From positions 64,001-128,000 of IMG/VR virus record IMGVR_UViG_3300013426_000014: a DNA stretch of 64,000 bases. One strand, given 5' to 3'. The DNA is from a virus (Duplodnaviria; Caudoviricetes). The notes below the pieces were generated by a model, which was given only the letters and a program-made list of their open reading frames with translations, was not told the origin of the DNA and ran no database searches. Made by a program: the position numbers and the translations under genes. Below are positions 999 to 63,048 of the stretch, piece after piece; the stretch's first letter is position 1, and every line of letters starts with the position of its first letter.

Positions 999-1742
999 TT
1001 ATCATTTATTATATGTCAGGAACGGCTGATTCATTTCGACATTCAGAATATCTATATACCGCGTGACGGTTTTCATCATCGCGTCGCACGCCTTTATATA
1101 CGCGATAAGATGTTCGAACTTGATATCGGATTTCTTGTACATGACATCATCCATCTTGCCATGATCATGCACCCATCGCAAATTTCCGGAGCTGTTTTTA
1201 TTATAAGTATGAGTCAGAATGTCTTTCATATCAATCCTTACCTGCACCGCGTCATGGAAAAATTCGACAATCACGGTGAGACGAACGCAAAAGTGGACAT
1301 ATATACTCTTATACAACATATATTTGTATTTCAAATCAATGTCACCGGTTCTTTTACATTTCCTGTTATTAACCTGTGCCATTTCGCCGCCGCTGTCAAA
1401 CATATGGTTAATGTATTCCGTCGTTATGTCAGCCGCCCGTTCCATGTCGTATTGCCCGGAAGGCTTGATATTGTAAATAAGCCTGACAGTATTGCTCGAC
1501 GACAGCGGGAAAATACGCGCGAGCGCCGCGGCCGACGATTTGACCGTATTTTGCCGGTCCCGCGATCCAGATGAATGGTCAAGAATCCAGTCAACCGGAC
1601 GGACCGCCGCTGCGACGCGGAGCGAGTCGATATTCGCGACCTTCGACACAAAACGAACCGAATTCTGACCGGCGGACGAGAGACACGCGCAGGCCGCAAT
1701 AACGAACGCCACCGATTTAAGTATTATACTGAGATTTTTCAT
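999..1742 (-). CDS. Hypothetical exported or membrane-anchored protein
   Basis: Signal-peptide-like start MKNLSIILKSVAFVIAACACLSSAG; ends TGA-TAA, so the stop is at 999 in code 4; start chosen by inspection. Confidence 0.55.
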
Positions 1743-1825
1743 AACGCGAATATATGACATATTTTCAAAATAAAAAACGGGCGGATAAAAAATATCCGTC
1801 CGCACTCAATCTTTTCCAGGTGTCA

Positions 1826-4947: not shown

Positions 4948-5517
4948 ATGGGAAAATTCGACAAGGACGGCAGTCAGCAGACGACCGGCCGCTCGCCGCG
5001 CGTGTGAAGCACAGAGCAGATAAACCAGATGATGACGGACTATGAAAACGGGTATGACATAGACTACTCGCCGTTCTTCGAGCACGACATCGACCTGAAG
5101 GCAGAGAACATCAGCTTCGACTACACGGACGCGGAGCTGGAAGAAATCGACAGGTGTTATAACGACCCGAAATACTTCATCGAGCGATACTGCAGGTGGA
5201 TGACGGACCACGGCATGCAGACGGTGACGCTGCGACCATACCAGAAGGAGCTCATAGACATAGTGACATCACAGGACTATGACGCGGCGAAAGACCTGCT
5301 TGTCCCGAAGAACCGTAACATCATATGAATGGCCGCGCGGCAAAGTGGAAAGTGTTGTTCTCCAATAAGTTACATATCATATAATGATAGCAATGCCGGT
5401 TTGTCAGAAAGCAAAACAAACAACTTTTATACAATCTGAAATAAATATAAAAAGCAAAAACGCACTTTGTTGTATCACATTAAAAATATGCTTTACTGAT
5501 TATATTCCAAATTATAA
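4948..5517 (+). CDS. terL: Terminase large subunit, N-terminal part fused to a split-intein N fragment
   Basis: DPKYFIERY, LRPYQKE (adenine-binding) and WMAARQSGK, then Cys at 5353 starting a 54-aa tail; four TGA read as Trp; TAA 5515-5517. Confidence 0.9.
5353..5514 (+). mobile_element. Split intein N fragment (54 aa)
   Basis: Cys1 directly after RQSGK; CCSPISYISY is block-A-like; sequence becomes AT-rich at the junction. Confidence 0.8.
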
Positions 5518-5522
5518 AGTTA

Positions 5523-6266
5523 ATGGAAATCAAAAAACGTAAAAAGAACAAACTTACAAAACATATCTGTATCGTGTGCGGCAAAGAATTCGAGGCGCGG
5601 CAAGGCGATGCGAAATTCTGCTCATATGAATGCGGCAAGCGATATCACGATCAGCAGGCGCTCGAAAAAAAGACGAGGTCGCTTCTCGAAAACGGCGTCG
5701 AGAATGTCGACTACATCATAGACAGGTGGAACGGTCTGCCGACCGTCCGGCTGTATGGCCGATGGTTTCGGAAAATGCATCCCGACCGCACGATGGATGA
5801 GTACAAGTCGGAATTCCCGGACGCGCCGATAACGATACCGAAAGACAAGGCCGCGACATCAAAGAATTCCGGCCAGTTCATGAAGAAACCGGAATACCGC
5901 GAGAAATATTCAAAGATGATGTCTGGTGAGAACAACCCGAATCATCACACAAAGGCGTCAGAGCAGAAGCGCAAGGAGAATTCGCCGTTTTCCAAAGAGT
6001 TTTATAAACGGAAAAACATGTCAGAATCGGACCGCGACATTTTTTTGACCGAAGTCGCGGAAAGCAGATCATACGCGGCGCAAATTGATTATTACATCGG
6101 CAAGGGAATGTCTTCCGAAGAGGCGGAGGTGGCGCGCGCCGAAAGACAAAGAACATGCGCGCTTAAACGTTTTATTAAAACATATGGTGAAGATGAAGGA
6201 ATGAAGAACAAGAAACAGGCGAAAACAATAAAAACAAATATGAATCGAGATACACGAAAAACGTAG
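5523..6266 (+). CDS. Free-standing homing-endonuclease-like protein, probably lacking its nuclease domain
   Basis: Zn ribbon CIVC..FCSYEC, NUMOD-like SGENNPN, FIKTYGEDEG repeat; position between intein halves; no HNH, GIY-YIG, LAGLIDADG or Vsr motif seen. Confidence 0.55.
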   Translation: MEIKKRKKNKLTKHICIVCGKEFEARQGDAKFCSYECGKRYHDQQALEKKTRSLLENGVENVDYIIDRWNGLPTVRLYGRWFRKMHPDRTMDEYKSEFPDAPITIPKDKAATSKNSGQFMKKPEYREKYSKMMSGENNPNHHTKASEQKRKENSPFSKEFYKRKNMSESDRDIFLTEVAESRSYAAQIDYYIGKGMSSEEAEVARAERQRTCALKRFIKTYGEDEGMKNKKQAKTIKTNMNRDTRKT

Positions 6267-6298
6267 AAGACAACATCGAAAAGTAAAAACAGACCGTT

Positions 6299-7279
6299 AT
6301 GAAAGACATGGATATCCGGAAATACTGACTATACCAGATATGGAAAGAATTCATCCACCGCGAATCGCCGTACATGGTGAACGAATCAATGGGACGGCCG
6401 GACAACATAGATATATGAGCCGACGCCGTATACAGAAAAATATCGGGCTGAATACAGGAAAGATACAAAGCCGAAGGGATCGGAGACAATCTGATCACGT
6501 CGGGAAGAATCATCATAGACAAAAACGATTTCGCCGGACGTGAATGCAAGGTGTTCTTTGACAAATGTGTGATAGACGTTGTTGCGAACATAGACATGTC
6601 CGGATCGTCGTTCGACGTGTCGTCCGCGAACTTTTATTACCCTGACAGAAGCGGCGTGCGCGCGGATGGGTCATACATGATATATCTCAAGTTCTTTCTA
6701 ATGGGCGACATCGATAAAGTGTTGGCAGATCTCCGTCCCGCGACGGCGCACGAGCTGACGCATGCGTATGTGGATTACAGGATGAATCCGGATGAATTGA
6801 TGAAAGACAGATCGGTCGGTGGGCTCGACCGGAATTTCGACAAAAAATTCCTGCACGGCGCCGCGGCAACAGATGACCCCGATATAAAGCTTATATATAA
6901 TATACTGTATTTCACGGAAAAAGACGAGATAAACGCGATGCAGTCCGAATTGTGGTCCGAACTTCTCAGGGGCAGAAGCATGATCGGAACATCTGCGGGA
7001 GCGAACGAATTATTAAAAAGGACCGAAGTGTATAAAAGGATGGAGTCGAACGAGAACCGTCTTCGCGAACTCCACCGCGTCACGGAGGAGGAACCGCGAA
7101 ACAAAATACTCGCTTTCTTCAATTCGGTTTTCCACTCGTCTGTCCCAGATTACTGGCGGATGCTGACGAAAGTCGACGTCATGTGAACCCGTGCGAGAAA
7201 CCGGTTGATGAATCGCGCGTGCAAATATATCGGTTATTTTCAGGACGTGAAGGACACGTACGGCTATATTCCATCATAA
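6299..7279 (+). CDS. Putative zincin metallopeptidase (HExxH), paralog 1
   Basis: Open across four TGA; AHELTHAY plus downstream EINAMQSE. Confidence 0.65.
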
Positions 7280-7299
7280 CCGATTCAAAGCGATAAGTC

Positions 7300-8286
7300 A
7301 TGGATATCAATCAATATATAAAAGAACATACTGCGCTGGAGTTCAAATACAGATCGCGATCATTATGCGAATCCGGTGGCGTTCCGGATTTCATAAGCGA
7401 CGCTGTCGACAGTTTGATGAACAGAATAATGGAAAAGATCCGGGCCGGCGAACGTGACCGATACGCGGACGGAATATTCGACATCAAAGCAGACGGATTA
7501 TTTTTCGACATATGCAGGATCGAAATGTCGATTTTGATCGACAAGCCATCCGACGCGGTGTCGATCTGCTGATCCGACGGCGGTTATGTGCCAGACCGCA
7601 GCGGCGACGCTGGCGGCAAATACATGATATACATATTGATTACAGCCGGCGGCAATGCAGACATGCTCGACGAAGAGATCCGCATCCTGCTCGCGCATGA
7701 AATAACCCACGCGTATAATGATTATATGACGCGGAACGCTGGGAAAATCAATCCGATACAATGCGGCCGGGCGGATGGGACAGTGCTTCACAAAAATTAC
7801 ATGAATCCGGATCAGATTATCAGATACATGCACGACATCATATATTTCTCGCTGAAATCTGAGACCAACGCGATGCAAAGTGAGATATTCATGGAGATGT
7901 CAAGAAAAAAAGGATACATGTCAGACCGGAACAACGTCGAAGCTGTCATGTCGGGCACGGCGGTGATGAAAAGGATAAAAAGAATAGCGGACGAGCTGTC
8001 ATACATTGAATCGTTGACGGAGCCGGACGGCAGAAAAAAGGCGGTGGACTTTTTCAACGCCGTATACCATACAAACGTGACGGATTTTAATTCGATAACC
8101 CGCAAAATCAAGACACTATTTTTCAAATCAAGAAGCAAAATAATCCAATCCGCATGCAAATCCGCGTTTATACTGCACGAGACATGATATGCGCCGGTCA
8201 GGATGAATGGAGAATGGCTCAATGTGTTCGACTGGACGCAAGTGAACGACGCGGACGCGAATACAGCAGAAACGATAATACAATAA
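7300..8286 (+). CDS. Putative zincin metallopeptidase (HExxH), paralog 2
   Basis: Open across two TGA; AHEITHAY plus ETNAMQSE; colinear with paralog 1. Confidence 0.65.
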
Positions 8287-8295
8287 CCGGATAAT

Positions 8296-8778
8296 ATGAA
8301 AATCAGGAAACTGCTAAAAATCATAGTCGGCAAATTCATAGAGAAGGCGGAGCGGTGGGAACTTCGGCATACTGATACTGGCGACGAGAACGATGTCTCA
8401 AAAAAGATAATTGACACCATCCCGGCGCCGGATCTTTCCGTGTCGTCTGACTCCGGCATGGTCCCTGTGACGGAGATACACCGCACGCGGCCGTTCACCG
8501 TATACGTCATAACGCTGGACGACGGCACGGAGATCGAATGCGCCGACAGGCATATCATGTACAAGGTGGACGACCTATCCGCGGCGAGTTTGCCGGAATG
8601 ACATGTTTATTCAGAATGCTTCGCGAAAAAACTTGTACCGGGTGACAAACTAGTAACGGAGAAAGGATATTCAACCGTCATATCCGTGGAAAAGATGCCG
8701 TACAGGATGTGTATGTATGATATGTCGGTGGCGACACAGGAGCACAGATATTACGTGAACGGCGTGCTTTCGCACAAC
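8296..8778 (+). mobile_element. Split intein C fragment (161 aa)
   Basis: Block B IECADRHIM, block F MYDMSV, block G YYVNGVLSHN, then Thr+1 at 8779. Confidence 0.9.
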
Positions 8779-10407
8779 ACGACAACAATGGCGTCTATTT
8801 TCGCTTACCTGCTGACGTTCATGAAGGACAGAAACTACATGCTGCTGGCGAACAAGGAAGCGACCGTCATCGAAATCGCGGACAAAGTCATACAAGTATT
8901 CAAAGGACTACCGTACTTCCTGAAGCCGGGATGCAGATCGTTCGGAAAGACCGGATTCCGGCTCGACAACGGATGCAGGATAATCACAGGAGCGACGACG
9001 AAGACGACGTCAATCGGTTTCACGGTCCACCTGCTGTATCTCGACGAGTTCGCGCACATCGACCCGACGATCGTCGACTCATTCTGACGGTCGGTATATC
9101 CGACCCTGTCATCGTCGGCCGTTTCGCAGTGCATGATCACGTCGACACCACACGGGGTAGACAACAAGTTCTATGATATATGGAGCAAATCGATGAACGG
9201 CGAGAACTCTTTCACACATTTCCGGACGGACTACTGGCAGGTGCCGGAGCACGACGAGGCGTGGGTCGCGAAGCAGAAGAAGGATTTCGGCGAGACTGAG
9301 TTCGCGCAGGAGTTCGAGCTGCAGTTCCACGCGGCGAGTAAGATGCTGCTCAAGCCGTCGGACTTCTCGTTCATCGAGCGAGTCGGCGCGCCGTTCGAGC
9401 GCAAGTACATCCCGTCAGACTCACCTTACTTGAACGATCCGGACCTTAAATGGGCGCCGGACTTTGACCCGAACGACGTGTCGCCGTCCGACAGGTTCGT
9501 TCTTCTCGTCGACCTGGCGGAAGGTAACGGGGACGAGGCGGTGGATGACACGAAGAAGAAAAGCAAGACAAGGACACCGGACTCAAACACCGTGCAGGTG
9601 ATGAAGGTCATCGCGAACAGTCCCGCTAACATCAGACGGTTCTCAGAGTCGGGCGTCACCATGAAAGACTCCGTCCGTTTCATCCAAGTCGGGACGTGAG
9701 AGAGCAACAGAAAAGACGAAGAATATTGCGGCAAGATGACATGCGCGCTGGCGCTCGATCTGCTGAAGGCAGCGGAAACAGACGGTGTCAGAGTCATGGT
9801 CGAGATGAACTTTCAGGGGAAGAACTATGTGACGTCAATGCGGCAGCATCCACTGTATTTCGACGGGCTGCTACAAAAGACATACCACACAAAACCTGTG
9901 CCGGGTGAGGTGAGAAGGAGAAGGATCGGATTCAAATCGGGACCGGAAAAGGAGCACTTCTGTCAGCTCGGCGCGAAGATGATAGCAAGACGGCGTATCG
10001 TGCCGCGTGACAGGACGACGCTTGGCCAGCTGGAGCAGTTCGGATATGTCAAGGGAAAAATCAAAGGAATCGCCTGTCATGACGATTTGTCATACCCAAT
10101 AATCAACCATATACCGGTCATGATGGATGACGAGACGTTCATGTCGTGGATCGAGGACTTTTTATACAACCTGACAGACGAGAAGAGGAAATACGAAATC
10201 AACATGTATATAAAAAAATGGGAGATGGAAAACCCAGAGATGACAGATGAATCATTTGCCGCGATGTACGGATTGAATGACAGATCAGAACTGTTCGGTG
10301 GAGGAATCAACACCGGGACGCCGTTCCAACAGTCGCAACAGCCGCAATACCAATATTATAATGGAATAAATCCATATTCATCCGGATATAACGGTGGATG
10401 AAGATAA
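8296..10407 (+). CDS. terL: Split-intein C fragment fused to the C-terminal part of the terminase large subunit (T4 gp17-like)
   Basis: After SHN come TTTMA, LANKEATVIEI, LPYFLKPG, Walker B LYLDEFAHI, F(TGA)RSVYPTLSS, ITSTPHG, FAQEFELQF and HDDL; four TGA; TAA 10405-10407. Confidence 0.92.
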
Positions 10408-13665: not shown

Positions 13666-14073
13666 TTATATTGTATATATGTTGTCAGAAAGCGACACGC
13701 GTTTAGAATCAGGAAGGCTTATCTTGCCAAGCTTCCTCCATCCCTTCTGGAAACCGTTGACGCAAATCTGTGTGATATAACTGAACGCGTTGAGACTTTT
13801 CTCCGGATTATAATTATGTCAGTACATAATACAGTCGAGAACCGCCTGCGATATACAATCTTCCCGGTCCATCGGATTGGTGTACTTGAGCTTCGTCGAC
13901 AACCGTTTCGCTATCTGCTGAAACATAAGGATCGCTTTCTCCGTCAGCTCACCTGACGTCTTGCACCGTATCAGCTCCTCGCGGAGCTCGTTGTTATTGA
14001 CATAATGCCGTGACGACATCAGATCCTTCGATGAGATGTCGTCGAGATTGACCTCCTTACGTTTCCTGCCCAT
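13666..14073 (-). CDS. Late-transcription sigma factor (T4 gp55-like)
   Basis: HYVNNNEL, DREDCIS, then Y(TGA)HNYNPEKSLNAFSYITQI, matching gp55-family NFxPEKSxNxFAYxTQI; TAA 13666-13668. Confidence 0.85.
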
Positions 14074-15107: not shown

Positions 15108-18100
15108 TTACACGGACAAAGTTTTCAGCGAATCCTTAGGAAGTTTCGTCATCGTGCCGGTCCCGTCCTGCAGGATAACGTCGACCAGATCAGATGGGTT
15201 TTCCGCCGCGGCGTACTGCTCGCCGTCGATCCAGACATTCCGGATAGCCTTGCCGTCCTGTGTCGTTTCAACACCGGATATGTACTTATCCTCGTTGACG
15301 GTCGCGTCCTCGAGAAGACGGATATACTGCTTCTGTGCCGACATCTTCTCCCCTTCTAGGATTATGCGCACGTCGTCGCCGTCCTTCGCATCACGATACT
15401 CGCCATAGTTGACATAGCAGTCAGCCGGAGTCAGCTGCACGCCGTTCATGAACAGACCGCATCTGAGCGTCATCGACTCGTATATCCCCTTGAGCGTCGC
15501 CTTGTCGAACTTAAACACCGGCTTCACCGTGTCTTTCTTCTCCGAAACGAGACGCACGGCGGACGGGGCGCACTTGACAGTCGATCCCTTTATGTTGACG
15601 ACAAGATCGCCGTCCGGGTATGTCGATATGACCTGACCTTTCTCACCTTTGTACGTGACATAATCAAGAACGTTCGGATCAGCGGACTCATTGACGCGGA
15701 TCACGTTCGACTCATGAAGCTTCGACTTAGGACGGAACTTGAACGTCTTTTTTGGCGTCGGCGTCTCCTCTGACTCATTCTTCTCGCCGTCGGCGTCCCC
15801 GCTGTCATTCTTATCGTCATCGTTATCATCGGAATCATCCTTACCGAACAAATCGGAATCATCGGTGTCAAACGTCGTGTCGTCTGAATTATCCTTCTCC
15901 GCGTCGGCGTTGTCGCCGTCGTTAAGGTCGTCGGTGTCGATTTCGACCGTCTTGCCGGTGCTGTCGTCCTTGACCGTTATCCGGACGCCCTCATCCAGAC
16001 ATCCATGACGGAACTTCCGTGCTTCTTGATAATCATCGTCATTGTTAAATGTGTCGGCAAACTTCTGAATCTCCGACGTCTCATTATCATAGCCGGTCGA
16101 CATCAAAATATAAGCAAGATCTATCTTGCCGTCGATGTCATCACCTTCGACAAACACCCGAATGACATCGTCACCGTTCTCATTTGTATCCTCTTCGTAA
16201 CTGATCTCGTAATCATCCAGCTTTTCTATAAGATCATCATCATACGGTAGTGTGAAATTGATGTCTGTCGTATCGTCATCGTTGTTTACCGGGTCGTCGT
16301 TCTCATCATCCAACATGCCGAACTCGTCATTTTCCGCGATCTCGACAAAATTCGCGGTCTCATCAGAGTAATCAACGAGATCATGAGCTTTAATCACGTC
16401 TGCCGCCCTTCTTGCTTCCTGGATTGTATCGACGGACACCATTATCATCTTTTCGTCAAAATCATCCGGATCGAAAAATCCATCGTCTTCGTCAAATATA
16501 TGAACGTCGGCGTTATTCAGATCATCCACAAGATCCGCGTCGTACGGAAGCATCACATCAATGGAGTCGCCTCTATGATCGGTCGATCTTTCGTTCAAAT
16601 GTCGGCGACAACGGTGGAACTGTCCTGAAACAGACTCATTTATAAAATCTATCCCTTTGATCATCAACGACTCCGCTACAGAGAACTCCTTGAAGAAATT
16701 AAAGAAGTTGTCATCCGTCCAGTCAAGCCATTCCTTAAAGAAATCCTTGAGCGCGTAAATCTCAGCCTTGCTCTTCACGTTTATCGTAAGACGTTTGCCG
16801 CCGTCACGGGTGTAATCAATACCTTTGTCATCAAGCATCGAGCAGACAAGATTCGGCGAAAGCGACGAGACGTACTTATTCGCAAGATCAAGTTTTACCT
16901 CTATCGGGTAGGTCCTGCCATATGTCTCTGCCTCATTCGGATTGTCATCCGGGATGTCATCCAAATCACCGAACAGCGAAGCGATGTCGTCACCGTCGCC
17001 TTCCGGCTCCGCGTCCTCGATATCGGCCGACAGATCGAGATCATCAACCGGCGAATCCGCGACGGCGGACCCGGCGGCGGTCTTAATCGTGCCGTCCGCG
17101 TCATCGTCATCATCGTCCGATGAGATACCCAACGCGAACGTGTCTGGCGCGTCGATTAGCACGTCGGTGTCGATCACGTCGGTCCCTTTGCCCGCGTCAT
17201 CTGCCGGAACATCAGGCGTCTCGCCACCAGCGGCGTCGATGTCACCGGCGAGCGCGCGCTCAGTGTCAGGACAGGCGTTGACAGCGTCGACAATAGCATT
17301 ATACATGTCGAGCGGCATGTAATCATTATTGATGATCGGTTTCTTGTCTGACGTCAGGTAGAACGTCACCTTCTTGACATCCTGTACAAGCTCGCCATTC
17401 GAGTTGACGGACGGGATTATGATATGGACCTCGCCCTTGTTCGAAACCTCGCCGGTCTTGACATTGGTGTTGTAAGCGACCTTGACTATCTCGAATCCGC
17501 CGTCATCCGGCTTAGGCTCCGCCGACCCGGCGCCGATCACACTGTCAAAACCGTAATCATCGTCACCATACGGGTCACGGTCAGAGCCATCAGACGGAAC
17601 ACCGGCCGGGACGTCAAGCACACCATCGAAATCAGGGATATCATCCTCGCCGCCGTCAGTCAACGGTTCGGTCGGGTCATCAGAACCGCCGTCCGGCTCA
17701 ACATCTTTGACATTAACGTCATCACCGTCATCGCCGGATCCGTCGGGATCGGCAGAATCGACATCCTTGTCGGACGGCTCGCCTGTCACGTCCTTCACGG
17801 AGTCCTGATAGTCCCTATAATCGTTCTTCACTCTATCAAGCTCGTCCTCGACCAGCTTTATCGCCTCCGCGAGCTCGCCGCCGTCATCACCGTCAGACTC
17901 CTTCATGGCACATAGCGTATCTTTCTTCTCCTCCAGCTCCTGTATATACGACTCATACTCCTTGCATGTGTCATCGACATCCTTCTTTATCTTGTCCTGA
18001 TTAGGAAGAACATCCTCGAACAGTGCCGATATATTGAGATTCATATGGTTATTGATCAGGTTCTTCGCCTGTATCGGGTTGACATTCCTGTAGAACGTCG

Positions 18101-19187
18101 TCTTACCCATCGACTCATCGACCGTTGTGACATATATGTTGTCCTTAAGTCGGAACACGTCGACTGATCTGCCGGCGCCGGACTCGTTAAGGCCGACATG
18201 CTTGACGAAATCAAGCACGGCGATATTGTCTTTGATGTTGTCCTTGATAATCTGGGCGACATTCCAGAACGCGTCACGTCCCTCGTTCATCATGTATGAC
18301 GCGTCACGGGCGGCGTTCCACTCAGACTCAGACAGGATTTTGCCATCAGCAAACACCTTGCCGTCCGTCGTTATCATGACATAACCGGTCGCGTCAGAAA
18401 CCTCGGCGCACAACTTATTCATGTCGAACGACACCATCGGCGAATTGACCGCCTCGCACAGGGCGCGAAAACCAGCCGGCAATGACGAAACGTCGGACTT
18501 CGGCAGCTTCGACACAGTGTTGCCCTTACGGACATAATAATTGCCGCGGACGTTAAACACCGACTCGTTTTCCTTGATGTACTGGACCGGCGAGCAGACC
18601 GTCTCAGCCTTCGCGACTGAATTCGCGACGTCGAATGACTCGCCCAGATACACGTTGTTTGGTATCGAATTATCGAGATTAAGAATATTATTGATCTCCT
18701 TGACATACGGATCACCCTGGAACGCGGTGAGCGCGGATCTGAGCAGAACACGGTTGGCCGGCGTCTTGTCATTGACATACGCGGCGACAGACTCCTCTAT
18801 CAGCGGGACGATATAATATGACGTCGTCTGCTCCATAAGACGGAAGATCTTCGTCAGGTCAATATCCTGCTTGTATTTCTTGATCCGTTCATTGAGAGCG
18901 GAAAGCTCCGTGTCAACGGCGTTAAGATATGAGTAATTCGATGCGTTCGATATAAACGACTCGTATAGCAGTTCGTCCGCCTGACCCGCGTCGATGGCGT
19001 CGATGTAGCTCTCGCACAAAGCGCGGAATGACGCGTTGCGGCCGGCAGCGGATATCATCCGCGCGATAAAATTACGCAGTCCGATACGGCTCTCGATCAC
19101 CGGTTTAGCGGCCGGCTTATCTGCAGCGACGGCTTCGTCAATCATCGCGGAAACCTGCCGCATCATCTTGTCTTTGTCTATTGCCAT
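15108..19187 (-). CDS. Large acidic protein, probable prohead core or internal head protein
   Basis: 1359 aa, D/E-rich centre, coiled coil, many hydrophobic-x-E-S motifs, late promoter upstream; function inferred. Confidence 0.6.
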   Translation of the reverse strand: MAIDKDKMMRQVSAMIDEAVAADKPAAKPVIESRIGLRNFIARMISAAGRNASFRALCESYIDAIDAGQADELLYESFISNASNYSYLNAVDTELSALNERIKKYKQDIDLTKIFRLMEQTTSYYIVPLIEESVAAYVNDKTPANRVLLRSALTAFQGDPYVKEINNILNLDNSIPNNVYLGESFDVANSVAKAETVCSPVQYIKENESVFNVRGNYYVRKGNTVSKLPKSDVSSLPAGFRALCEAVNSPMVSFDMNKLCAEVSDATGYVMITTDGKVFADGKILSESEWNAARDASYMMNEGRDAFWNVAQIIKDNIKDNIAVLDFVKHVGLNESGAGRSVDVFRLKDNIYVTTVDESMGKTTFYRNVNPIQAKNLINNHMNLNISALFEDVLPNQDKIKKDVDDTCKEYESYIQELEEKKDTLCAMKESDGDDGGELAEAIKLVEDELDRVKNDYRDYQDSVKDVTGEPSDKDVDSADPDGSGDDGDDVNVKDVEPDGGSDDPTEPLTDGGEDDIPDFDGVLDVPAGVPSDGSDRDPYGDDDYGFDSVIGAGSAEPKPDDGGFEIVKVAYNTNVKTGEVSNKGEVHIIIPSVNSNGELVQDVKKVTFYLTSDKKPIINNDYMPLDMYNAIVDAVNACPDTERALAGDIDAAGGETPDVPADDAGKGTDVIDTDVLIDAPDTFALGISSDDDDDDADGTIKTAAGSAVADSPVDDLDLSADIEDAEPEGDGDDIASLFGDLDDIPDDNPNEAETYGRTYPIEVKLDLANKYVSSLSPNLVCSMLDDKGIDYTRDGGKRLTINVKSKAEIYALKDFFKEWLDWTDDNFFNFFKEFSVAESLMIKGIDFINESVSGQFHRCRRHLNERSTDHRGDSIDVMLPYDADLVDDLNNADVHIFDEDDGFFDPDDFDEKMIMVSVDTIQEARRAADVIKAHDLVDYSDETANFVEIAENDEFGMLDDENDDPVNNDDDTTDINFTLPYDDDLIEKLDDYEISYEEDTNENGDDVIRVFVEGDDIDGKIDLAYILMSTGYDNETSEIQKFADTFNNDDDYQEARKFRHGCLDEGVRITVKDDSTGKTVEIDTDDLNDGDNADAEKDNSDDTTFDTDDSDLFGKDDSDDNDDDKNDSGDADGEKNESEETPTPKKTFKFRPKSKLHESNVIRVNESADPNVLDYVTYKGEKGQVISTYPDGDLVVNIKGSTVKCAPSAVRLVSEKKDTVKPVFKFDKATLKGIYESMTLRCGLFMNGVQLTPADCYVNYGEYRDAKDGDDVRIILEGEKMSAQKQYIRLLEDATVNEDKYISGVETTQDGKAIRNVWIDGEQYAAAENPSDLVDVILQDGTGTMTKLPKDSLKTLSV

Positions 19188-19220
19188 TATATTTGGTGTT
19201 TATTTTTCTGTTTGACAGTA

Positions 19221-19228
19221 TATTTATT
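19221..19228 (-). promoter_or_regulatory. Late promoter AATAAATA
   Basis: 34 nt upstream of the 1359-aa gene. Confidence 0.6.
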
Positions 19229-19244
19229 GACGGCACAACAGAAA

Positions 19245-19284
19245 AATCAGGAAAATGAAACAAAAACGTTACATTTTCCTGATT
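19245..19284. terminator. Intrinsic terminator-like hairpin
   Basis: 13-bp inverted repeat aatcaggaaaatg/cattttcctgatt in an intergenic gap. Confidence 0.6.
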
Positions 19285-19305
19285 ACATAAATAATTAAAA
19301 ATCAA

Positions 19306-20919
19306 TTAGTTCTTTAAGGTTGGCAAAGATTCTTTAACAAAATTCAGTAATTCATTCTCCGACACTGCAGGGTCGTCATCATATGAAACATATCTTTTAT
19401 TATCGACGCGCAGGCCAGAATAATACGTCTTCATCGCGTTCCTGAGCGCGTCATAGAATGGGCCCGAACATACAACCGACCCCGGAGAGTTCAACCATTC
19501 CGGAACAATGCCGTATATCGCAATCGGACCGTCATGTCATGAGTTCTGCACATACCGGAACAGCGTGACGACCTGTATCCTGGACGGGTCATCCGGTCAG
19601 AACGTGATCCTATCACACTGCGCCGGATGATATATCCGGCCTGCGCCGCCGGTAATGATGTAATCCATCGTCTTGTATTTGACTGTAAACAATGTCTTGT
19701 TCGCGGATCGTCCCGGTCATTTCAGTACATCGCCGTCCGTCGAGAACGACTCGACTGAATACGGCACCTTCATACGGTCAAAAATTCTGTATAATGTGTC
19801 AGGCATAAAATGATCATCGAACTCACCAGCGTCGGCCTTTTTCATATACGAGTCATACGTGGTCAGAATGTCACCAATCGACGCGCCGGCCAGCTTCGCC
19901 TTACGCAGCCATGTACGTCACCCGTTATTGTATATGGTATTAGTCTTTTCTCATTCTATGTAAACATCAATATTGTCACGCATCCGCGGAAAATATCTCG
20001 CGGCGGCGTCATCATTGGCGTGTTGAAAGATATAACTACCGACGCATTCGCATACGGCGGTTTCAACGGTAGTAGTCTTCTTCGCCGTCGGCGCCATGTA
20101 GTTCATCTTCCTGTACGACCCCGCATCTATCACGTCATTCCTGGTCAGGCGAAAATCATTGCCGGTCGCGATCTGCATCGCATCAAACTCACCAATAAGC
20201 GCGTCGGAACTCATCCACGCGGCGGCGGCTTCTTTCATCGCACACATGATGCCGTCACACAGTTCAATCACCTCCCGTACATGGCGCGACAATACAGAGT
20301 TAACTGCTTGAACCGGCTTATATGAGTGGAATATGTCACCGAAAACACTGGATAGAAGATTATCCTTGTATACGACAGGTTTGGATTCATACACGACGGC
20401 GTTACCGACCCGCAACCGCACCTTAACGTATCCGCTGACATAAACATTCAACGTATCGTCATCAATGACCGCGTCGTCGACATGATTCAATATTGACAGC
20501 ACATTACCGGACTCCGGCGTGAACGGGGCGAGCCGCCTACTGTACACGGCGTCCGGAAATTTCTTGAGACCGGCGACAATGGCGGGATATGTCGATACAT
20601 TATAATACAGGCCTCAACGCATCGTGTCTTTGACACCGTCCGGAACCGGAAGCGTTCTCGTGTCGCCGTTCCGCCTTTCGCCGAAATAGTATTCCTCGGC
20701 CGCGGCGTCCGGCCTGATCAGATCCGGGTTCTTTATCAAATCGGCGGGACTGAACGACCAAAATTGGCATCATTTCTGAGAATCCAGGCATCACTCAATG
20801 TGTCCGAAATAATCCTGATCAGACAATGTTTCCGTCCAGTCTTCGACATCCCCGTCGGAAAGGTTGAAATCCTCATATAACGGCGTTCTGTATCTTGATT
20901 GTATCATCAGTGCATTCAT
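19306..20919 (-). CDS. Hypothetical protein (537 aa in code 4)
   Basis: Single frame open across eight TGA; N-terminal LYEDFNLSDGDVEDWTETLSD. Confidence 0.7.
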
Positions 20920-20923
20920 ATTT

Positions 20924-22276
20924 TTACAGAATCCGTATCAATCCGGATTCAGCTTTAACATCCATACCCGTGACGGTCAGAACAATCCTGCCGGTAGCAG
21001 GCGCGATGTTCTGCTTATATACAGAATACTTACCGGTTTTTATCTTAACAGGCTCGCTTAAATCAATCACGCCCGCTGACGTTACATGAAACAGGTAATT
21101 ATCATCTATAACGACATTCCCGTCATTGTCGACGTATTCAAGTGAGAACGGAACCGTCCCGTCATTGTCGCCGTCAAGTCACGCGCCAGATCCTGGATCC
21201 GTTATGACGAACGAATCTGCTGTTATCTCATTGTTCCCGTTCGGCACGACACGCACAGATGGCATCACACCGAACCTGTACTTGTCCGAATTTACATATA
21301 TTTCCGGCTGTGTGAAACCGGTCATGCCGTCCGGTATATTCCAGATGTACTCACCCGAATAACAATACAGACCGTACGCTATTTTTATGACGTCGCCTGA
21401 ATCCTGAACAAAATCCAGACACAGCGAATACGGCTCCGCTGTGTCCGCTTTGAAATCCCATCCGATCCTCATCGCCGCCCCCGCCGAATACGGCATGACA
21501 GCATTACCGGCAACGACTGGATCTGTGATGGCGGCGGAAATGTTAACAGACTCCGCTGGCATGACATTCAGACCAATCGACTCCATGACACAATCCGCCG
21601 GTATCGCGGTCGTCGGGTCGAACACCGGCTGGTATGTCTCGACGCCCAATGTAAAAGTCATCTTGTTCTCACGTTTCACATTGTCATACGTCAGATCCAT
21701 AGTCGGCTCATATGAATACTGTTCAGGAAAACCGACCGTACAGCCGACCCTGACACCAGAAAACATCACGTAAAATGACCGATTCTTATAGAACTCGTCA
21801 CGTATCGCCTGCTCTATCTTCATGACGGACAAAAAATCCGTGTCGGCGGTCAAAACAGTACAGTCAAACGTCATATTCAGCGGAATCGACTCCATCATCG
21901 CCTTGTACGTCGTCAGCACGCCCCTGTCATTCCTCGTGAACGTCCCCATCACCGGCGAAGTGCACGACCCGGCGTCGATCTGAGATCCTTTATAGACGAT
22001 AATACCTTTCGGATATGAGTTGAAATCGGTATCCATCCTTCGCGATCCGAAACATTCCCTGCCGAAGAACGTATAATTGTCCTGCAGGAATCTCTCGTTA
22101 TTCGCGTGGGAAAAACCATAATATCACGGAACGGTCACGTCCTGCATCGTATCGTTATCCCACACCTGCTTGTACACTATGGCATTGTTGAGCAGGTTGA
22201 GCAGACCGGATATAACGGACCTGACAAGAACGTCATCCGTGTTGTGTATGTTGTACAACGAAGATTGCTCCGACAT
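20924..22276 (-). CDS. Tail terminator / sheath stabiliser (T4 gp15-like) with C-terminal extension
   Basis: VP(TGA)YY..NERFLQD, IPLNMTFDCTV and FTLGVETYQPVF; open across two TGA. Confidence 0.6.
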
Positions 22277-22551: not shown

Positions 22552-22965
22552 CTATTTCTTACGATTGAAACGCACGACCCACCTGACAAACAAAACAGCG
22601 AGAGCAACGAACACGACGCCGAACGTGATCCATCCACCCGTCGACGTTATGAGATCCCTGCCGTTCAAGAAATGCATGGCGTATCCGGCTATCGCGCACA
22701 CGTGCACGAACAGCCCGCCGGCGACAGTCGCGCCGAAATCTCACCAATCCCACTTGCTGTCGATGAAATACTCCTTGATGAACGCGGCTAACGCCGTGAC
22801 GAAATACCCGCCCGCGGCCGCGACGAAAACATCCCGCCATGTTATGTCAACCGGGCCGGTGATCATCGACAGCGCGAACATCGCGGTGAACGCGGCGAAT
22901 ATGACACCGCCTATCCCGAAATGCGCGATCCGGTCAAGCCCTATCTTTTTCACAAGTTCTTCCAT
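22552..22965 (-). CDS. Small multi-pass membrane protein
   Basis: DRIAHF..KEYFID.KWDW(TGA)DFGATVAGG; about four hydrophobic segments; TAG stop. Confidence 0.65.
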
Positions 22966-36300: not shown

Positions 36301-36777
36301 ATTCTGGATCGACATCAGCATCGATCTGAACTTTGACAGCATCCCGGCGCGGGTCGACTCCTTCTGGTCGACAAGGTAGTCGTATGTCGAGTAGTTCTTC
36401 TCGTTCGTGTACTCATCGTCCGCGGCGGTCGGCTCGGCCGACCCGTTGTCCCAGTTGATCCTGTCGGTCAGCGGCGTGTTCGCCGCCTCCATCACAGAGA
36501 ACAACCCCGGATCCGTCTTCGTCTTGCTCGTCGGTGGGGCGAGCAGCGGCATGGGCATGTCGTTGTAACTGTTTTCCGATGACGGGTTTTCGAATGTGAA
36601 CGCGATCCGGAACGTCAGGTATGTCGGCTCGTCGTAATCGCCCTTGAAATATGAATTCTTCGGGGCGTTGTTATGAAAATCGTTCAGGAACGCGCGCCGG
36701 ATACTCTCGTTCCCGCGGTCCTTGCCGTTCAGTATCGACGGCCCTGATATGGGGAACACCCCCGTTGTCTTGCCCAT
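33370..36777 (-). CDS. Large tail/baseplate-associated protein with acidic tandem repeats
   Basis: Two fragments join across TGA 35404-35406 (1135 aa); lies in the baseplate cluster. Confidence 0.6.
34200..34611 (-). repeat. Coding tandem repeat, about 9 x 45 bp (15 aa, DNPYE...)
   Basis: DSPYEDGLDGRKENV DNPYEETEDVKRTDI NDPYEDGADAKKTDL DNPYEETEDVRRTDI and further units; boundaries approximate. Confidence 0.85.
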
Positions 36778-43153: not shown

Positions 43154-43179
43154 ATAAAAAAGAAATGACGTCTTTGCCT

Positions 43180-43187: not shown

Positions 43188-43219
43188 GACAAAGACGTCA
43201 AATCCTGGTTTTTAACGCG

Positions 43220-44800
43220 CTATATGAGCGAGTTCGTTGATCCGTCCGGCGCGAGCTTCACAGAGAATGTTTGGTATGGGAAACCGCGCTGCCTGTATAT
43301 CTTTTCCCTCTCTTTGAAATGTCTGTATAAGTAGTTGTCCTTCTGATACCCGGTCCCGGCCCGCATGTCGTCACCGAAGTCGATGAAAATCACTTTGTCC
43401 TTGCCGACGGAACGGCGCATGCCGCGGCCGATGAGCTGCGATATCTGGACCTCAGACTTCGTCGACTCGGCGAGGAATATATTGTATATGTTCGACACAT
43501 CGATACCTTCTGAGAATGTGCCGACCGAGGCGACGATCACGGTGTTACCGTCCGCGTCGTCCTCCATCCTATTCTTCGCGTAATCGCGGGTGCTTGAGTC
43601 AACACCGCCGTCGACATAGAACACCGTCTTGTCCGTGTTCTCCCTCAGCCACTCGTATATCCGCCTGCCGTACTCATTCTGTATGTCGGAGAAAATGACC
43701 AGCGAATTTTTCGTCGTCTTCGCGATCATGCCCGTCACGTAATTGAACCGCGCCCGTGACTTGCGCGCGATGTCCTTCTCGAGGTTGAGAAGCTTGCCGC
43801 CGGCGGTGATGTCGTCCCTGTCTTTTGTACATCTCGCGTCATACAGCGCGTTCTTGCGGTCGTCCGTCAGGTAGTCCATCGCGATGCCGACGACATTGAT
43901 AGGCGTCGCGAACTGCTCCTTGTTGATCAGGTCGTAACTTGACAGCCTGAATACGATCGGCCCGATGTATGCCTGCTCGATGAAACTGTCGTATGTTCCC
44001 TCTTTCGGAAACGTGCCGGTCATGCCGACCTTATATCCGGCGTTGTAACATTTTTTTATGATCCCCTTAATGGATGTCGCCGTGGCGTGCTGTACCTCGT
44101 CTATCAGTATGCAGTCGATATCCTTGAAGAACTCGACTCCCTTCTTGCACAGCGATTGGTAGTTGCCGAATATTATGTTGTCGTCATACGTCTTCTTCTT
44201 TTTTGCCTTCGCGTGAATTTCCGAGTACGTCCAGTCGGTCGGCACGCCGTTCCCGCTGTCATACTCGATGAACTTCTCCGCCGACTGAGACGTTAGGTTC
44301 GTATTCGGCGTCACGAACAGTATCTTGCGGAGGTGTAACATGTCCTTCATATACCGGAAGAGCAGGTACGACACGAGCGTCTTGCCACCGGACGTCGAGA
44401 TCTCAACGCAGCAATTGCGGTATGACAATATCGAGTACGCCGCCTGTATCTGGTAGTCTTTTGGCTTCTTGTCGTTTTTCGCGAAAAGGTTATCTGCATA
44501 TTCCTTGAATCCGCCGAACGATATCGAGCAATTCCGTATCTTGCAGTCGAATCCGTCGATGAACTCAATGTCATATCCATACTCCTTGCAGACGTTGACG
44601 AGCTCGAGATACAGGCCGCGTGGTATGATGCAGCCGTTCGACATGAAGCTTTCCTCCACGTTTGCGTACGGCGCCTTGTTCTTGATGATCCACCAGTTGT
44701 TTATCTTTTTGGTGAAAGACATCTCGATCTGCCGCCGCTCGATCTGCGTCATTTGTTCGAGTATTATGAATTTTTCGTCTGATGTAAGTCTCGCCGTCAT
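43220..44800 (-). CDS. uvsW: SF2 DNA helicase, UvsW-like
   Basis: KDYQ, STSGGKT, DEVQH, GMTGT, FSEGID and QLIGRGMR; no in-frame TGA. Confidence 0.9.
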   Translation of the reverse strand: MTARLTSDEKFIILEQMTQIERRQIEMSFTKKINNWWIIKNKAPYANVEESFMSNGCIIPRGLYLELVNVCKEYGYDIEFIDGFDCKIRNCSISFGGFKEYADNLFAKNDKKPKDYQIQAAYSILSYRNCCVEISTSGGKTLVSYLLFRYMKDMLHLRKILFVTPNTNLTSQSAEKFIEYDSGNGVPTDWTYSEIHAKAKKKKTYDDNIIFGNYQSLCKKGVEFFKDIDCILIDEVQHATATSIKGIIKKCYNAGYKVGMTGTFPKEGTYDSFIEQAYIGPIVFRLSSYDLINKEQFATPINVVGIAMDYLTDDRKNALYDARCTKDRDDITAGGKLLNLEKDIARKSRARFNYVTGMIAKTTKNSLVIFSDIQNEYGRRIYEWLRENTDKTVFYVDGGVDSSTRDYAKNRMEDDADGNTVIVASVGTFSEGIDVSNIYNIFLAESTKSEVQISQLIGRGMRRSVGKDKVIFIDFGDDMRAGTGYQKDNYLYRHFKEREKIYRQRGFPYQTFSVKLAPDGSTNSLI

Positions 44801-58863: not shown

Positions 58864-61800
58864 TTATCTGTTAAAATTTGGGCTTTCGACATTATATGAA
58901 ACGGATTTCTTGTCCGCATTCCACACATTGTTCACGTCATCGTTATATGACGACGCGTTAAAAATCTCCTGTGACACCTCGACGCCGGACTTCACGTCCG
59001 ATATCTCGATGTTCGTCGTCGACAGCAGGTATTCCGGCGTCTTCGGAAGGTAGTCGTACACGCATGAATCCGTCGTCGTCCCCCTGTCACTGATGATAAA
59101 GTTCCGCGAGCTGTCCAGATTGATCCTGTCATACCTGTCCTGATCCGGATCCCTCGCGTATTTATTGAAAAAATTATCACTCCACGCCGACCGCACGACG
59201 CTCCAATCCCGTTCGAAATCAATGCCTAAGCCGAACGCGGTCGCGTTCGTGTTGACGCAGTATTTCGTGTCCTCTGAATATTTGTTGAACCACATCTGCC
59301 CGTCCGCCGCGACGTTCTCCGCCGACACGTTCGCCGATCTGAAATCAACACCCATCGTCTCGGATAATTCTTTGTTGTTGAATTTCCAGTCGATCCCACT
59401 CACCGTCTCCGGCTCGAAATATGTCGGATGGACCCAGAACCGCTCCGCCGATCTGTTTGTCTTTATGAATGTCTGGTCAACCGGATCGACGACCGTCACG
59501 CCGAACAGATCCGCCGTCACGTTGTCGTAATATTTCACACCGTCCGCCGTCTTCACCCACATCACCGCGTCTTTTACCGCTGACTTGAAGTCATCGTATG
59601 TCGTTCCGGCATGGTCTGATCCGCCGTCGTTCGCCCCGATTTTTCATATGACCGCCGGACCGTCCGTCTCTGTCCTCGCTGTCAGCAGGTTGAACGTCTG
59701 ATCATCCTTCACATATGATCCGGCTGCCGTTCGGATGTCATCGTTTCCGTCTGAATAAAGTCTGTTCACGTTTTTGTCCGTCCCGGCTGGTTTGACCTCC
59801 TTCGCTTTCGAGTGTGCGGTGAATCCCGGGCCGGACGATTCGATGAAGAATTCGTCGCCCGCCGCGAATCGGATCTTCATTTTGGACGGGATTGCCGTCC
59901 GTCATCCTTCGCCGGCGACATGTTCCGAATATACCCGCTCTGATTTCACGGCGGACGGCATTTTCATCGCCGTGAGCCCGCCGAAGTCAATAGATCTGTT
60001 CCTGTCAGCGTACACGAGCGTCGACATGTTCTTATGCCATATGATCGCGATCTCCCGCGCGGTCTCGTCCACGACGATCTCCATGTCATGGTCCGATCCG
60101 TCCTTCACGACGGCGATGATCCCCGCGAAATTGTCTCACTTGTCCGTGTTTATGACGTTCTTCCTTTGTGACGATATGTTGATCTTCACACCGCCCGACA
60201 CCATCTCGACGGTGTTCATCCCCCTTGAATAGAGCGTCGAGAATTTCGGCAGGTGGTTGCTTTCCGTCATCAACATGTCGGATATAGTCAGGTTCCCCGC
60301 GAGGTTCTCGTCCGTCGACAGGAACGTCCCCTCGAAATATTTCCGGTATGTCCCGCCTGATATCTCAGGGCATGACATGTATCCTATCTGAGACGCGAAT
60401 TTCGAGTTCGCCGCATTGCCGTCATAGTCCGCCGGTATGAAGAATGACGTCACCGTGTCGGCCGAGCTGTTGGGATTGTATCTCAACATGCTGTTGTTAT
60501 ATGTCAACTTGATGTTGACGCCGCGGGTATCCGTTCCGACCGCCCGTCATTTGCAGTTGTACGGCGACACGAGCGACACCTGCGATCTCGTGATGTTCCG
60601 CTCATACTTGTGACGGAGGTACTTGTTCATCGACAGCTCCACCGGGTACTTATACGTGTACGGCGTTGTGTTGTAGTCGGTTATCGGGTTTTGCGCGTAA
60701 AGCGGGACGGAGTCGTCCTTCCCGATGTAGCTTGAGAACACCTCCGATGGTCTGTCGGACAGCGTCTTGTCCGCGTCATCCTCGTATATCTCCTCCCCTT
60801 CCGTCGCGCCGCGGTCCGATATCACCTTCTCCGACTCGCCTGCCATCGCGATGTTCGACACGTTGTCCATCACGTCGAAATTGTAGTCCCGCACGGGGAA
60901 TATCCCGCACACGCCGTAATCGAACTCCATCGGTATGTACAGGTATACCGACCGGCTCGTGTCGAGCGGCGACTCCGTGAATATGACGGCACGTTCCGGG
61001 TTGTTATATGAGTACATGTATCCGCCGCCGATCTTCGACAGGTATACATATTTCCCGGACGCGTCCATCGTCATGACCGGCCGTCCGGCCACTGCCTTTT
61101 TGTAGTTGTCGATGTACTGCACCTCGTATGTGTTCAGGCCGGATGCGTCCATGAACTCGACCGTCCACGCCGGCCGCGGGCCGAGCACCTCGAAATTGAT
61201 CGGCGTCAGAGCCGGGTCGTCGTAATCCGACGTTAGCGCGATCTCCGGTTGCTCACCGTTCGAGAAGAACGACACGGCGGCGGATTCTTTTTTGTACGTC
61301 TCCATCATGTCGGCCGACGCGGCGGTATATCTCGATACCCGTTGGAACGTCAGTTTCTTGTCCGATGTTACAGACAGGTTACGGTATGTGGCCTTCGCCT
61401 CGTACGGCCCGTCAAGAATGTTCAGCGCGGCCGCTATGACGGCGCACTGATCGGTCACGCTTTCTCGCTCCGCGTACATAGAGACGCGGGTTATCGTGTA
61501 TTTCCTCCCGTCCGTATCATCCGTTCCGGCGTTGACTGTTACATGGCTGACGCCTTTCTTCTTGTACAGTGGACTGTCGGAGAATATCAGCTCGTATATC
61601 CGTGTGTCAGACTCGTTCGTCTCGTCTATTATTCTGAAATGCTCGCCCGCATGCAGCGCGTCGTTCAGACGCATCGTCACGAACCGCCTCGACTCGATTT
61701 TCCGCGCCATCCCGACAAATACATTGTGACCGGGTTTGTCTTTATATATGTCCGCGTAACCGGATCCCATCATTGTCCCCGATATCCGCCTGCATCGGTC

Positions 61801-63048
61801 AGAATCGGCGCAGCAGTACAGTACGTCAGATCCGGACGCGTCCCAGTCATATGACACCGCATTGCCGTCCGCGTCGATGAACTGACCTCCCACATTATAC
61901 AGCGGACCGTATCCGTTCATCTTAATGTACAGTCCGAAATATGTGTCGATGCTGAACGTGTCCGAATCCGGGTCGTCGAACATGAACTCGAAGTTGACGA
62001 CGCTGTCCGACAGCATGCCGTTGCGCTCGAAACCCAACGTGTAGAAGTTGTCCGCCTGCACCTGGTTCCTGTATTTCAGCGCGTAAGGCGACTCGTATAT
62101 GGTCGACACCGCGCCCTTGTCCAGACTTATGCCAGTGTATGTGTTGAACTGTGTCGGGTTATATGCGACATAAAGCTGGGCGTGCGTCGATTTCGCCCGG
62201 TCCTGTATCGTCCTGACGTAACGGCCGAGCCGCGAGCCCTGCCGCATGTCGTATGACTTGATAATCTTTCCGTCCGCCATCATTTTCTTGAATACGGCCG
62301 TGTCCGACATCGCGGATGTCAGGTCGACTGTTCCCGGGACCTTCATCACGATGAAGAAGTCCGGCAGCGTCTCGCCGATTTTCAGCGGCGCGAGCAGAGC
62401 GAAGTTCTCGCTGTACAGCTTGTCTGTGTTCGTCGTCACGCCGTACCTGTACATGTCGACGTACTGGTCCTTGAAGTCATTGACGACGCTGAATATCTTG
62501 TGTCACTCGTCCGGTACGGCGTACATATATGACTTCGCCGGCATGTTCGCCGCGTATGCCGCCACATTTCTGCCGTAATAGTCGGTGTGCCTTACCGGCA
62601 CGCGCCTGTATTTCCGCCTCGACAGCTCTGCGTTGACCTTGAACGCGTCCAGAAACAGGTCACTGTCAGAGTCGACGACGACCTTCACGTTCCCGGATAT
62701 TTTAGGGTTGACGCGGAGCATCATGTACGACCCCCGCGGCTTATTCAGGTCTACCGCTTTTCGCATATTCGGATCCAGCAAAACCGATTTCGGCCGCTCC
62801 CATGTGAAAGTGGTCTGCACTTCGTCAATCACGAGATGGATCTCTGTCTGATCCGCCTTGATTTTCCTGTCAATGCGGATGGATATTATGGTCGGCTTCC
62901 CGTAATTGATACCTTCTTTCGGTAATTTTGACAACGGCCACGCATTCACCAATATATGGTCGAGCGCGTCCGCGTCCAATGACGACACGTCGCCGGCCTT
63001 GACCGACGACGCCCGCACGAGATATTCGTTGTCTATAAGCGCCGGCAT
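58864..63048 (-). CDS. Large structural protein (1394 aa)
   Basis: Six fragments join across five TGA; TAA 58864-58866. Confidence 0.7.

Follow-up and report, generated by a model that had tools for sequence, protein, structure and literature searches.

Gene content of the window and TGA as a sense codon

We analyzed a 64,000-nucleotide (nt) stretch of DNA, hereafter the window, which covers positions 64001-128000 of one virus record of 269,322 bp (IMGVR_UViG_3300013426_000014) and in which the codon TGA encodes tryptophan. Several window genes are T4-like, namely those for an AAA+ clamp loader, a T4-type large terminase (TerL), a DEAD/ResIII helicase, a neck/head-closure protein, a baseplate hub, a baseplate wedge, and a gp55-like late sigma factor; most of the other window proteins had no family match in Pfam or PHROGs. 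Among GenBank phages, the nearest TerL was that of an uncultured 462-kb huge phage (LR756500.1), followed by those of the Prevotella Lak megaphages, both at ~31-32% identity. The GC content is 50.3% for the whole record and 50.1% for the window, where 4-kb bins range from 42% to 55%. The window is likely part of a T4-like jumbo phage of the mammalian gut that has a record of at least 269 kb, is distant from the Lak megaphages, and decodes TGA as tryptophan.

Genes were called by tiling open reading frames (ORFs), scored by codon usage, under code 11 and code 4. The code-11 tiling of the window consisted of 88 fragments with a median of 150 amino acids (aa) and a coverage of 83.6%, whereas the code-4 tiling consisted of 45 genes with a median of 318 aa and a coverage of 91.7%. 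Eighteen of the code-4 genes each unite at least two called code-11 fragments, 53 fragments in total. In-frame TGA occurs in 31 of the 45 genes (999..63048), which together contain 96 TGA and 169 TGG codons. The stops are TAA in 34 genes and TAG in 11; none of the genes ends in TGA, no window gene requires TGA as a stop, and same-strand neighbors are mostly spaced by −1 to 20 nt. A preliminary description, made by eye from the sequence, had stated that ORF fragments rejoin across TGA and that the joined genes end in TAA or TAG close to the next start. The tiling, the stops, and the spacing bear this out, as does the gain in coding density from code 11 to code 4.

As a chance control, we scored the 40 codons past the stop of coding-looking code-11 ORFs throughout the genome. 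The mean coding score per codon downstream was +0.22 for TGA, −0.05 for TAA, and +0.04 for TAG (Mann-Whitney p=1e-18), and coding potential continued past 263 in-frame TGAs. Taken together, TGA is a sense codon in about two-thirds of the window genes, and TAA and TAG are the sole stops needed there.

Tryptophan at TGA positions

We compared the TGA-containing genes with those of three relatives. The first (L001) is a 4.8-kb IMG/VR contig with an unsplit TerL that is 70% identical to the window TerL. The second (L044), from pig faeces, has 57% GC and proteins 90-97% identical to those of the window, and the third (L045) has 30% GC, proteins 47-72% identical, and the gene order of the window. 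Opposite the window TGAs, we observed TGA in 15 cases, tryptophan encoded by TGG in 9, Tyr or Phe in 6, and other residues in 4; in the reverse direction, 22 TGAs of these relatives stood opposite a window tryptophan. In the columns shared with the TerL of L001, TGA was opposite TGG in both directions and also opposite TGA. Three of the L001 TGAs opposite a window TGG lie in the C-terminal TerL piece (8296-10407) and the fourth in the N-terminal piece (4948-5517). The TGA-containing genes are as follows:

4948..5517, + strand: N-terminal piece of TerL and start of a putative intein, 4 TGA; TGA opposite TGA at two extein columns of the unsplit L001 TerL
8296..10407, + strand: C-terminal half of the putative intein and rest of TerL (Terminase_6N), 4 TGA including F-TGA-RSVYPTLSS; the TGA of this motif is opposite TGG in L001
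27448..28230, + strand: DUF6549/DUF6808 protein, 2 TGA including K-TGA-GISLTAGYG; both columns W in close homologues and W/Y/F in distant ones
33370..36777, − strand: 1135-aa structural-module protein, 1 TGA; syntenic with L045, where the TGA is opposite F
36781..38403, − strand: 540-aa protein, 5 TGA; opposite TGA three times, W once, and N once in L045
39585..41636, − strand: 683-aa protein, 3 TGA; 3/3 opposite TGG in the 90%-identical relative L044
41648..43201, − strand: head-closure/neck protein (T4 neck, phrog_679), 5 TGA; opposite W, W, TGA, W, and TGA in L044
50607..58859, − strand: 2750-aa repeat protein, 23 TGA; repeat motif with TGA and TGG in one column
58864..63048, − strand: 1394-aa protein, 5 TGA

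In an alignment of 17 neck protein sequences, the window TGA at position 416 stood opposite W in 15 of 15 homologues; at positions 142 and 278, W was found in the nearest relatives and hydrophobic or aromatic residues in distant homologues. The 2750-aa repeat protein, whose start we reset to the ATG 4 nt past the upstream stop, has five copies of a ~115-aa unit with the motif [W/TGA][SD][FWY]xK, and two of the five copies use TGA. This column confirms the earlier remark that the repeat tryptophan is TGG in some copies and TGA in others. The same repeats had been taken for Ig domains, but a Pfam search did not recognize the ~115-aa units as Ig. All the motifs quoted in the preliminary description are present, and F-TGA-RSVYPTLSS is indeed in TerL, but K-TGA-GISLTAGYG and WDW-TGA-D belong to other genes, the latter to the ORF 22552..22965.

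When TGA is counted as tryptophan, the tryptophan content rises from 1.05% to 1.40%, a normal value. Based on the interchange of TGA and TGG with relatives, the tryptophan columns of the alignments, and the internal repeats, we conclude that TGA, as predicted from the start, is to be read as tryptophan. We discarded a tally of the residues opposite TGA in an all-against-all BLAST of the phage's own proteome as noise (its paralogues are only 20-30% identical).

Additionally, we noticed a TGA 0-3 codons ahead of the TAA stop in several genes (TGA-TAA, TGA-x-TAA, or TGA-KEK-TAA), as at window 999-1826 (−), 8296-10407 (+), and 41648-43201 (−) and at genome 26277-28049. TGA is mildly enriched in the final tenth of genes (38 vs ~24 per decile). 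Such near-terminal TGAs may once have been the stops of genes that now run on to the following TAA or TAG, or they may be stops that function in either code.

The TerL gene itself is fractured at Walker A (window 4948-10407, +). After the ...RQSGK end of its N-terminal piece come ~54 aa that begin with Cys, and then a TAA; its C-terminal piece begins with ~160 aa ending in ...SHN, then TTT and the remaining TerL; the TerL of L001 is continuous (712 aa). Such a layout resembles the "fractured gene" form of a split intein. Between the two pieces, also on the + strand, lie 5523..6266 (treble-clef/NinG-like) and the paralogues 6299..7279 and 7300..8286. Elsewhere, in L045, an OrfB_IS605/Cas12f-like TnpB gene (L045:7058-8245, −) adjoins the helicase-neck module; it is absent from the window.

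The split tRNA(UCA) gene and its intron

Plain ARAGORN predicted 33 tRNAs at genome 202-222 kb, including Trp(CCA). No tRNA with a UCA anticodon appeared in the plain ARAGORN and Rfam scans of the genome, which gave the same tRNA set. In its intron mode, among ~76 false positives, ARAGORN predicted a tRNA(UCA) with 293 nt inserted after position 34. The gene lies outside the window, 78,860 nt beyond its end:

Genome 206860-207225, + strand: predicted split opal-decoding tRNA(UCA), in which a 293-nt group-I-like intron separates U34 from C35; exon 1 has 33 nt and exon 2 has 40 nt

The joined exons form a perfect ARAGORN cloverleaf, whose acceptor, D, and anticodon stems have 7, 4, and 5 bp, respectively; the anticodon loop is C-U-U-C-A-A-A, the T-loop TTCGAAT, and the discriminator G73. 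The G1-U72 end resembles that of the phage tRNA-Trp(CCA).

Just downstream of tRNA(UCA) is a DUF7873 gene with hundreds of homologues, and we compared the flanks of this gene in relatives. Two contigs with a 97%-identical DUF7873 carry an intron-less tRNA(UCA) (L055:1536-1608 and L054:5890-5962) that equals the predicted ligated exons at 73/73 positions. It stands at the same spot, after tRNA-Met and ~40 nt ahead of DUF7873. Two further contigs with a 97%-identical DUF7873 (L052 and L053) have a 333-nt insert in tRNA(UCA). L056, a 318-kb contig of a 30%-GC recoded relative, has its own tRNA(UCA), split between U34 and C35 by a 212-nt insert. These comparisons are the decisive evidence for the predicted split tRNA(UCA) gene. 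A tRNA-Trp(UCA) elsewhere in the genome, which the preliminary description had named as a thing to look for, was thus found in split form.

Two other candidates were rejected. A "tRNA-Cys(GCA)" called by ARAGORN at genome 207154-207225 has 17 bits in Rfam and is a weak artefact built on the true 3′ exon. The idea that a tRNA-Trp(CCA) of the Hirsh type or with a short stem reads TGA was set aside after the split tRNA(UCA) had been validated. When viral contigs were searched by exact pattern for further split copies, there were 27 matches, all by chance, and blastn of the pre-tRNA against GenBank phages gave nothing. A look-alike intron-less tRNA(UCA) is present in L043, a 168-kb phage without a neck-protein match, so that kinship is not shown.

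Next to the conserved exons, the intron shows its own signs of structure. It folds much more strongly than shuffled sequence does (z=−5.2). P1 pairs C-3 with G90, U-2 with A89, and U-1 with G88, which places a U-G pair at the splice site; the GGAGC guide is invariant and the terminal G present in all four intron alleles. A group I layout can be drawn, in which P2 and P9b end in GNRA loops, P4-P6 lie within P3, and P8 and P9 follow, while P7 (G194-C250, bulged A195, G196-C249) forms a pseudoknot with P3. In the four-allele alignment, P4 and P7 are invariant and 96.9% of cells pair, a percentage biased by a structure drawn from the genome's own fold. The compensatory changes are free of this bias: 14 pairs have compensatory double changes, compared with 4.6±1.6 in shuffles (0/500 reached 14) and 0-2 with slid partners.

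The Rfam family Intron_gpI (RF00028) had no match at E<=10, either in a 900-nt search with all families or in a whole-genome search with this single family. Because of this, and because splicing is predicted only, we call the element group-I-like. As judged by its sequence, the intron is a conserved, structured, group-I-like element with predicted splicing; it has no ORF. It is also polymorphic among near-identical phages, being absent in two (L054, L055), 333 nt long in two (L052, L053), and 293 nt long here, and the size difference lies in an insertion hairpin of the P1 loop.

Group I introns are known in the anticodon loops of bacterial tRNAs, e.g., the cyanobacterial tRNA-Leu(UAA) intron of subgroup IC3. 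Like the element described here, that intron lies between positions 34 and 35 after a U, with a U-G 5′ splice site and a terminal G, and has a P3-P9 core, a P3/P7 pseudoknot, GNRA loops in L2 and L9, and no ORF. The present element differs in the missing Intron_gpI match, in its ~80-nt P1 insertion hairpin, and in the tRNA that it splits, a phage opal suppressor. "Enigmatic" introns with presence/absence polymorphism have been reported in Lak tRNAs (Tyr, Thr) (Devoto et al. 2019, PMC6784885), so tRNA introns are not new in the wider group. In the literature searched, we found no description of an intron inside a suppressor anticodon. An anticodon split in this way lets the suppressor escape standard tRNA scans.

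The strongest alternative is that the split tRNA(UCA) is dead here, disrupted by a selfish element, and that TGA is read by a near-cognate tRNA-Trp(CCA) or else by a suppressor encoded in the 13% of the genome that the record lacks, with an anti-RF2 factor as a possible aid. It could draw on the missing Rfam group I match, the predicted-only splicing of the precursor, the tRNA-Trp(CCA) that the phage encodes, the incomplete record, and the intron-less alleles in 97%-identical relatives, which show that the intron is dispensable. The exons, however, are 100% intact when compared with those intron-less alleles, and the split architecture is conserved in a relative with proteins only 47-72% identical. 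Further, the intron has compensatory covariation, invariant P4 and P7 helices, a U-G at the 5′ splice site, and a terminal G. We therefore consider a dead gene improbable and favor a split tRNA(UCA) that would be spliced and read TGA.

Distribution of TGA, host, and history of the code

TGA is used by 95 of the 205 genes called in the whole genome (46%). This share is 26-71% in recoded phages of standard-code hosts and ~90% in phages of recoded hosts. Among the 81 genes with at least five tryptophan codons, 26 are free of TGA, compared with 10.5 expected (0/20,000 simulations reached this number). The replication and nucleotide-metabolism genes contain 57 TGG and 0 TGA. Their TGA-free set includes a NAD-dependent ligase (LigA), a DnaB-like helicase, an SMC-like protein, two PolB pieces, NrdD, adenylosuccinate synthetase, a DEAD helicase, and a clamp loader. 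In the tRNA array region (186-228 kb), there are 9 TGA and 100 TGG codons (Fisher p=1e-7). The preliminary description had proposed that the phage may impose the code itself, and both the predicted tRNA(UCA) and the TGA-free replication and nucleotide-metabolism genes support that idea. The window genes that matter for this distribution are the following:

13666..14073, − strand: gp55-like late sigma factor, TGA at codon 85; phrog_234, E=2e-21, residues 20-110 span the TGA
28..981, − strand: AAA+ clamp-loader-like gene, TGA-free
43220..44800, − strand: DEAD/ResIII helicase, TGA-free (4 TGG, 0 TGA)
15108..19187, − strand: 1359-aa gene, TGA-free (5 TGG)

Since the TGA of the late sigma factor lies inside the conserved sigma region, synthesis of the full-length protein would require TGA to be read as sense. 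Next to the 1359-aa gene, we observed a 1.7-kb stretch (window 19188-20923) without a confident gene call in either code; its sole long code-4 ORF (19306..20985, −) has 10 TGA in 559 codons and a low coding score.

Outside the window, three adjacent ORFs (142, 129, and 174 aa) at genome 252616-253963 (−) form a code-11 tiling in which each has TGA as its stop, one of them as tandem TGA-TAG. A fourth ORF of 246 aa (genome 251373-252113) also ends on TGA. TGA may still be a stop in this early-looking block near 252.6-254.0 kb.

The BACON domain occurs mainly in Bacteroidota and their phages. We found N-terminal BACON domains (E=1.5e-12) in a 2628-aa protein with 20 TGA at genome 158862-166748 (L008:11262-19148, −). 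Together with the pig-faeces relative L044 and the distant TerL link to the Prevotella Lak phages, this gives hints of a host in Bacteroidota, the phylum named in the preliminary description. A search of species genomes with the DUF6549 protein for a host gave nothing, and no host link through CRISPR was obtained. We also observed that a 153-kb contig (G002:C406; L047, L049) in a "Clostridium" metagenome-assembled genome (MAG) has an NrdD 53% identical to that of the phage and a Ser(TGA)-Trp(CCA) pair of tRNAs, ordered as they are in the phage. It is probably a mis-binned jumbo-phage contig.

The partition of TGA is consistent with a host that would itself use the standard code and with a code switch in the course of infection. 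In such a host, early genes would be translated by the unmodified host machinery. Once spliced and charged by the host TrpRS, tRNA(UCA) would out-compete RF2, and the late TGA-containing genes (gp55-like sigma, terminase, neck, baseplate, and fibre) would then become translatable.

Several points weigh against this reading. TGA is also missing from some structural genes (tail sheath, baseplate hub, and one for a fibre), so the early/late split is not clean. The intron has no Intron_gpI match, and its splicing is a prediction. The RF1, RF2, and TrpRS families had no match in the record, so that of the further genes the preliminary description had suggested looking for, RF1 and TrpRS, neither was found. 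The BACON domain and the gut source are no more than hints of a Bacteroidota host, and the best bacterial NrdD matches, to "Bacteroidales" and "Clostridium" MAG contigs, are unsafe and may be phage DNA. The record is linear, without a terminal repeat, and its completeness is estimated at 87% by CheckV. Finally, the direction of GC change discussed below rests on four lineages, with no rooted tree.

If the host itself used code 4, being Mycoplasmatota-like, the phage would share the host code and there would be no code switch. Among isolated code-4 phages, most have Mycoplasma or Spiroplasma as hosts (PMC11210395), and the evidence on the host of this phage consists of hints. Against this stand the 26 tryptophan-rich genes with zero TGA (10.5 expected), the 0 TGA in 57 tryptophan codons of the replication genes, and the use of TGA by only 46% of genes rather than the ~90% of phages of recoded hosts. 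The phage also carries its own tRNA(UCA); it has 50% GC, a genome of at least 269 kb, a BACON domain, and a pig-gut source, and its small ORFs at 252.6-254.0 kb form a code-11 tiling with TGA as the stop. A recoded host is therefore very unlikely. It is scarcely credible that TGA means glycine (code 25), cysteine, or selenocysteine, or marks pseudogene breaks or assembly errors: one TGA of the neck protein is opposite Gly in distant homologues, but this sole Gly column sits at the poorly aligned C-terminus, and TGG in 90-97%-identical relatives and invariant tryptophan columns opposite TGA exclude the other amino acids, while the normal tryptophan fraction (1.40%) and the 263 in-frame TGAs with coding potential beyond them also speak for a tryptophan codon. 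In a code-25 phage of Absconditabacteria or Gracilibacteria, TGA would be expected opposite Gly; here it is opposite tryptophan or aromatic residues instead.

Low GC, a usual though not defining correlate of recoding, is not found here: the GC at third codon positions (GC3) of the called genes is 0.65, which, with the 50.1% GC of the window, agrees with the statement of the preliminary description that the phage is not AT-rich. In the TGA-using genes, TGA makes up 0.38 of the tryptophan codons. The A-ending share of the other two-fold purine pairs is 0.47 for Lys, 0.39 for Glu, 0.40 for Arg-AGR, 0.25 for Leu-TTR, and 0.22 for Gln. In L045, with a GC3 of 0.19, the TGA share is 0.80 and the same pairs lie at 0.64-0.87, and L044, with 57% GC, has 2 TGA in its neck and 683-aa genes vs 8 in those of the window. 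As the TGA share tracks the A-ending share of the other pairs, TGA behaves as a plain synonymous codon that follows composition. Moderate GC would then be no paradox: TGA would be an ordinary partner of TGG, its share set by the composition of the genome.

A more distant relative (L046, a 318-kb contig, ~37% identical, 37.5% GC) has 0 in-frame TGA in 5858 codons and one gene that ends on TGA, i.e., it uses the standard code. Recoding is thus common to AT-rich and GC-richer lineages with a standard-code outgroup, from which we infer that it probably arose in an AT-rich ancestor and that the code was probably simply retained as GC rose. An AT-rich origin agrees with the proposal that low GC is a precursor state for recoding (Borges et al., bioRxiv 10.1101/2021.08.26.457843).

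Opal-to-tryptophan recoding with a late-gene bias and a phage suppressor tRNA is an established kind of recoding, reportedly described by Ivanova in 2014. It is also documented in the work of Yutin et al. (PMC7886860) and Borges et al. (bioRxiv 10.1101/2021.08.26.457843), and the present phage shares many features with the code-4 clades Jade, Sapphire, and Agate and the TGA-recoded crAss-like phages. These, too, are large gut phages with TGA read as tryptophan, in which in-frame stops concentrate in structural and late genes and replication genes are spared, only part of the genes is recoded (46% here), a suppressor tRNA is phage-encoded, and a standard-code host is presumed. Unlike them, the present phage has a GC of 50% and a GC3 of 65%, and its suppressor gene is split by an intron; the RF1/TrpRS "code-change module" of Jade was not found in this record.

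By TerL (~32% identity), the phage is nearer the Lak-type huge phages. The Lak megaphages of Prevotella are likewise gut jumbo phages with an alternative code, large tRNA arrays, and tRNA introns (Devoto et al. 2019, PMC6784885). They differ in that they recode TAG, have ~26% GC and ~540-kb genomes, encode RF2, and carry introns in tRNAs for Tyr and Thr, not in a suppressor. The TerL identity of only 31-32% and the 11 window genes that end in TAG place the phage outside that group.

What this phage adds to the known pattern is a code kept at a GC3 of 0.65, with TGA at synonymous-codon equilibrium, and a suppressor anticodon predicted to be split by a polymorphic group-I-like intron. Opal-to-tryptophan recoding is maintained here with TGA at the level expected of an A-ending synonymous codon, so low GC may matter for the origin of recoding and not for keeping it. 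In practical terms, annotation pipelines that use code 11 fragment about two-thirds of the window genes of this phage.

In published surveys, suppressors were found in only 35% and 15% of code-4 phages (bioRxiv 10.1101/2021.08.26.457843; PMC11210395). A split anticodon is a concrete reason why suppressors may go undetected in most of them, and natural intron-plus and intron-minus alleles exist. The presence of a TGA in the late sigma gene bears on whether recoding gates late gene expression. As a speculation that we think rather unlikely to hold, splicing could act as a timer or tuner of the switch from the standard code to TGA as tryptophan, with late transcription locked behind the code change. 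The intron polymorphism would then be natural variation in this control, and split anticodons could explain the 65-85% of code-4 phages that seemingly have no suppressor.

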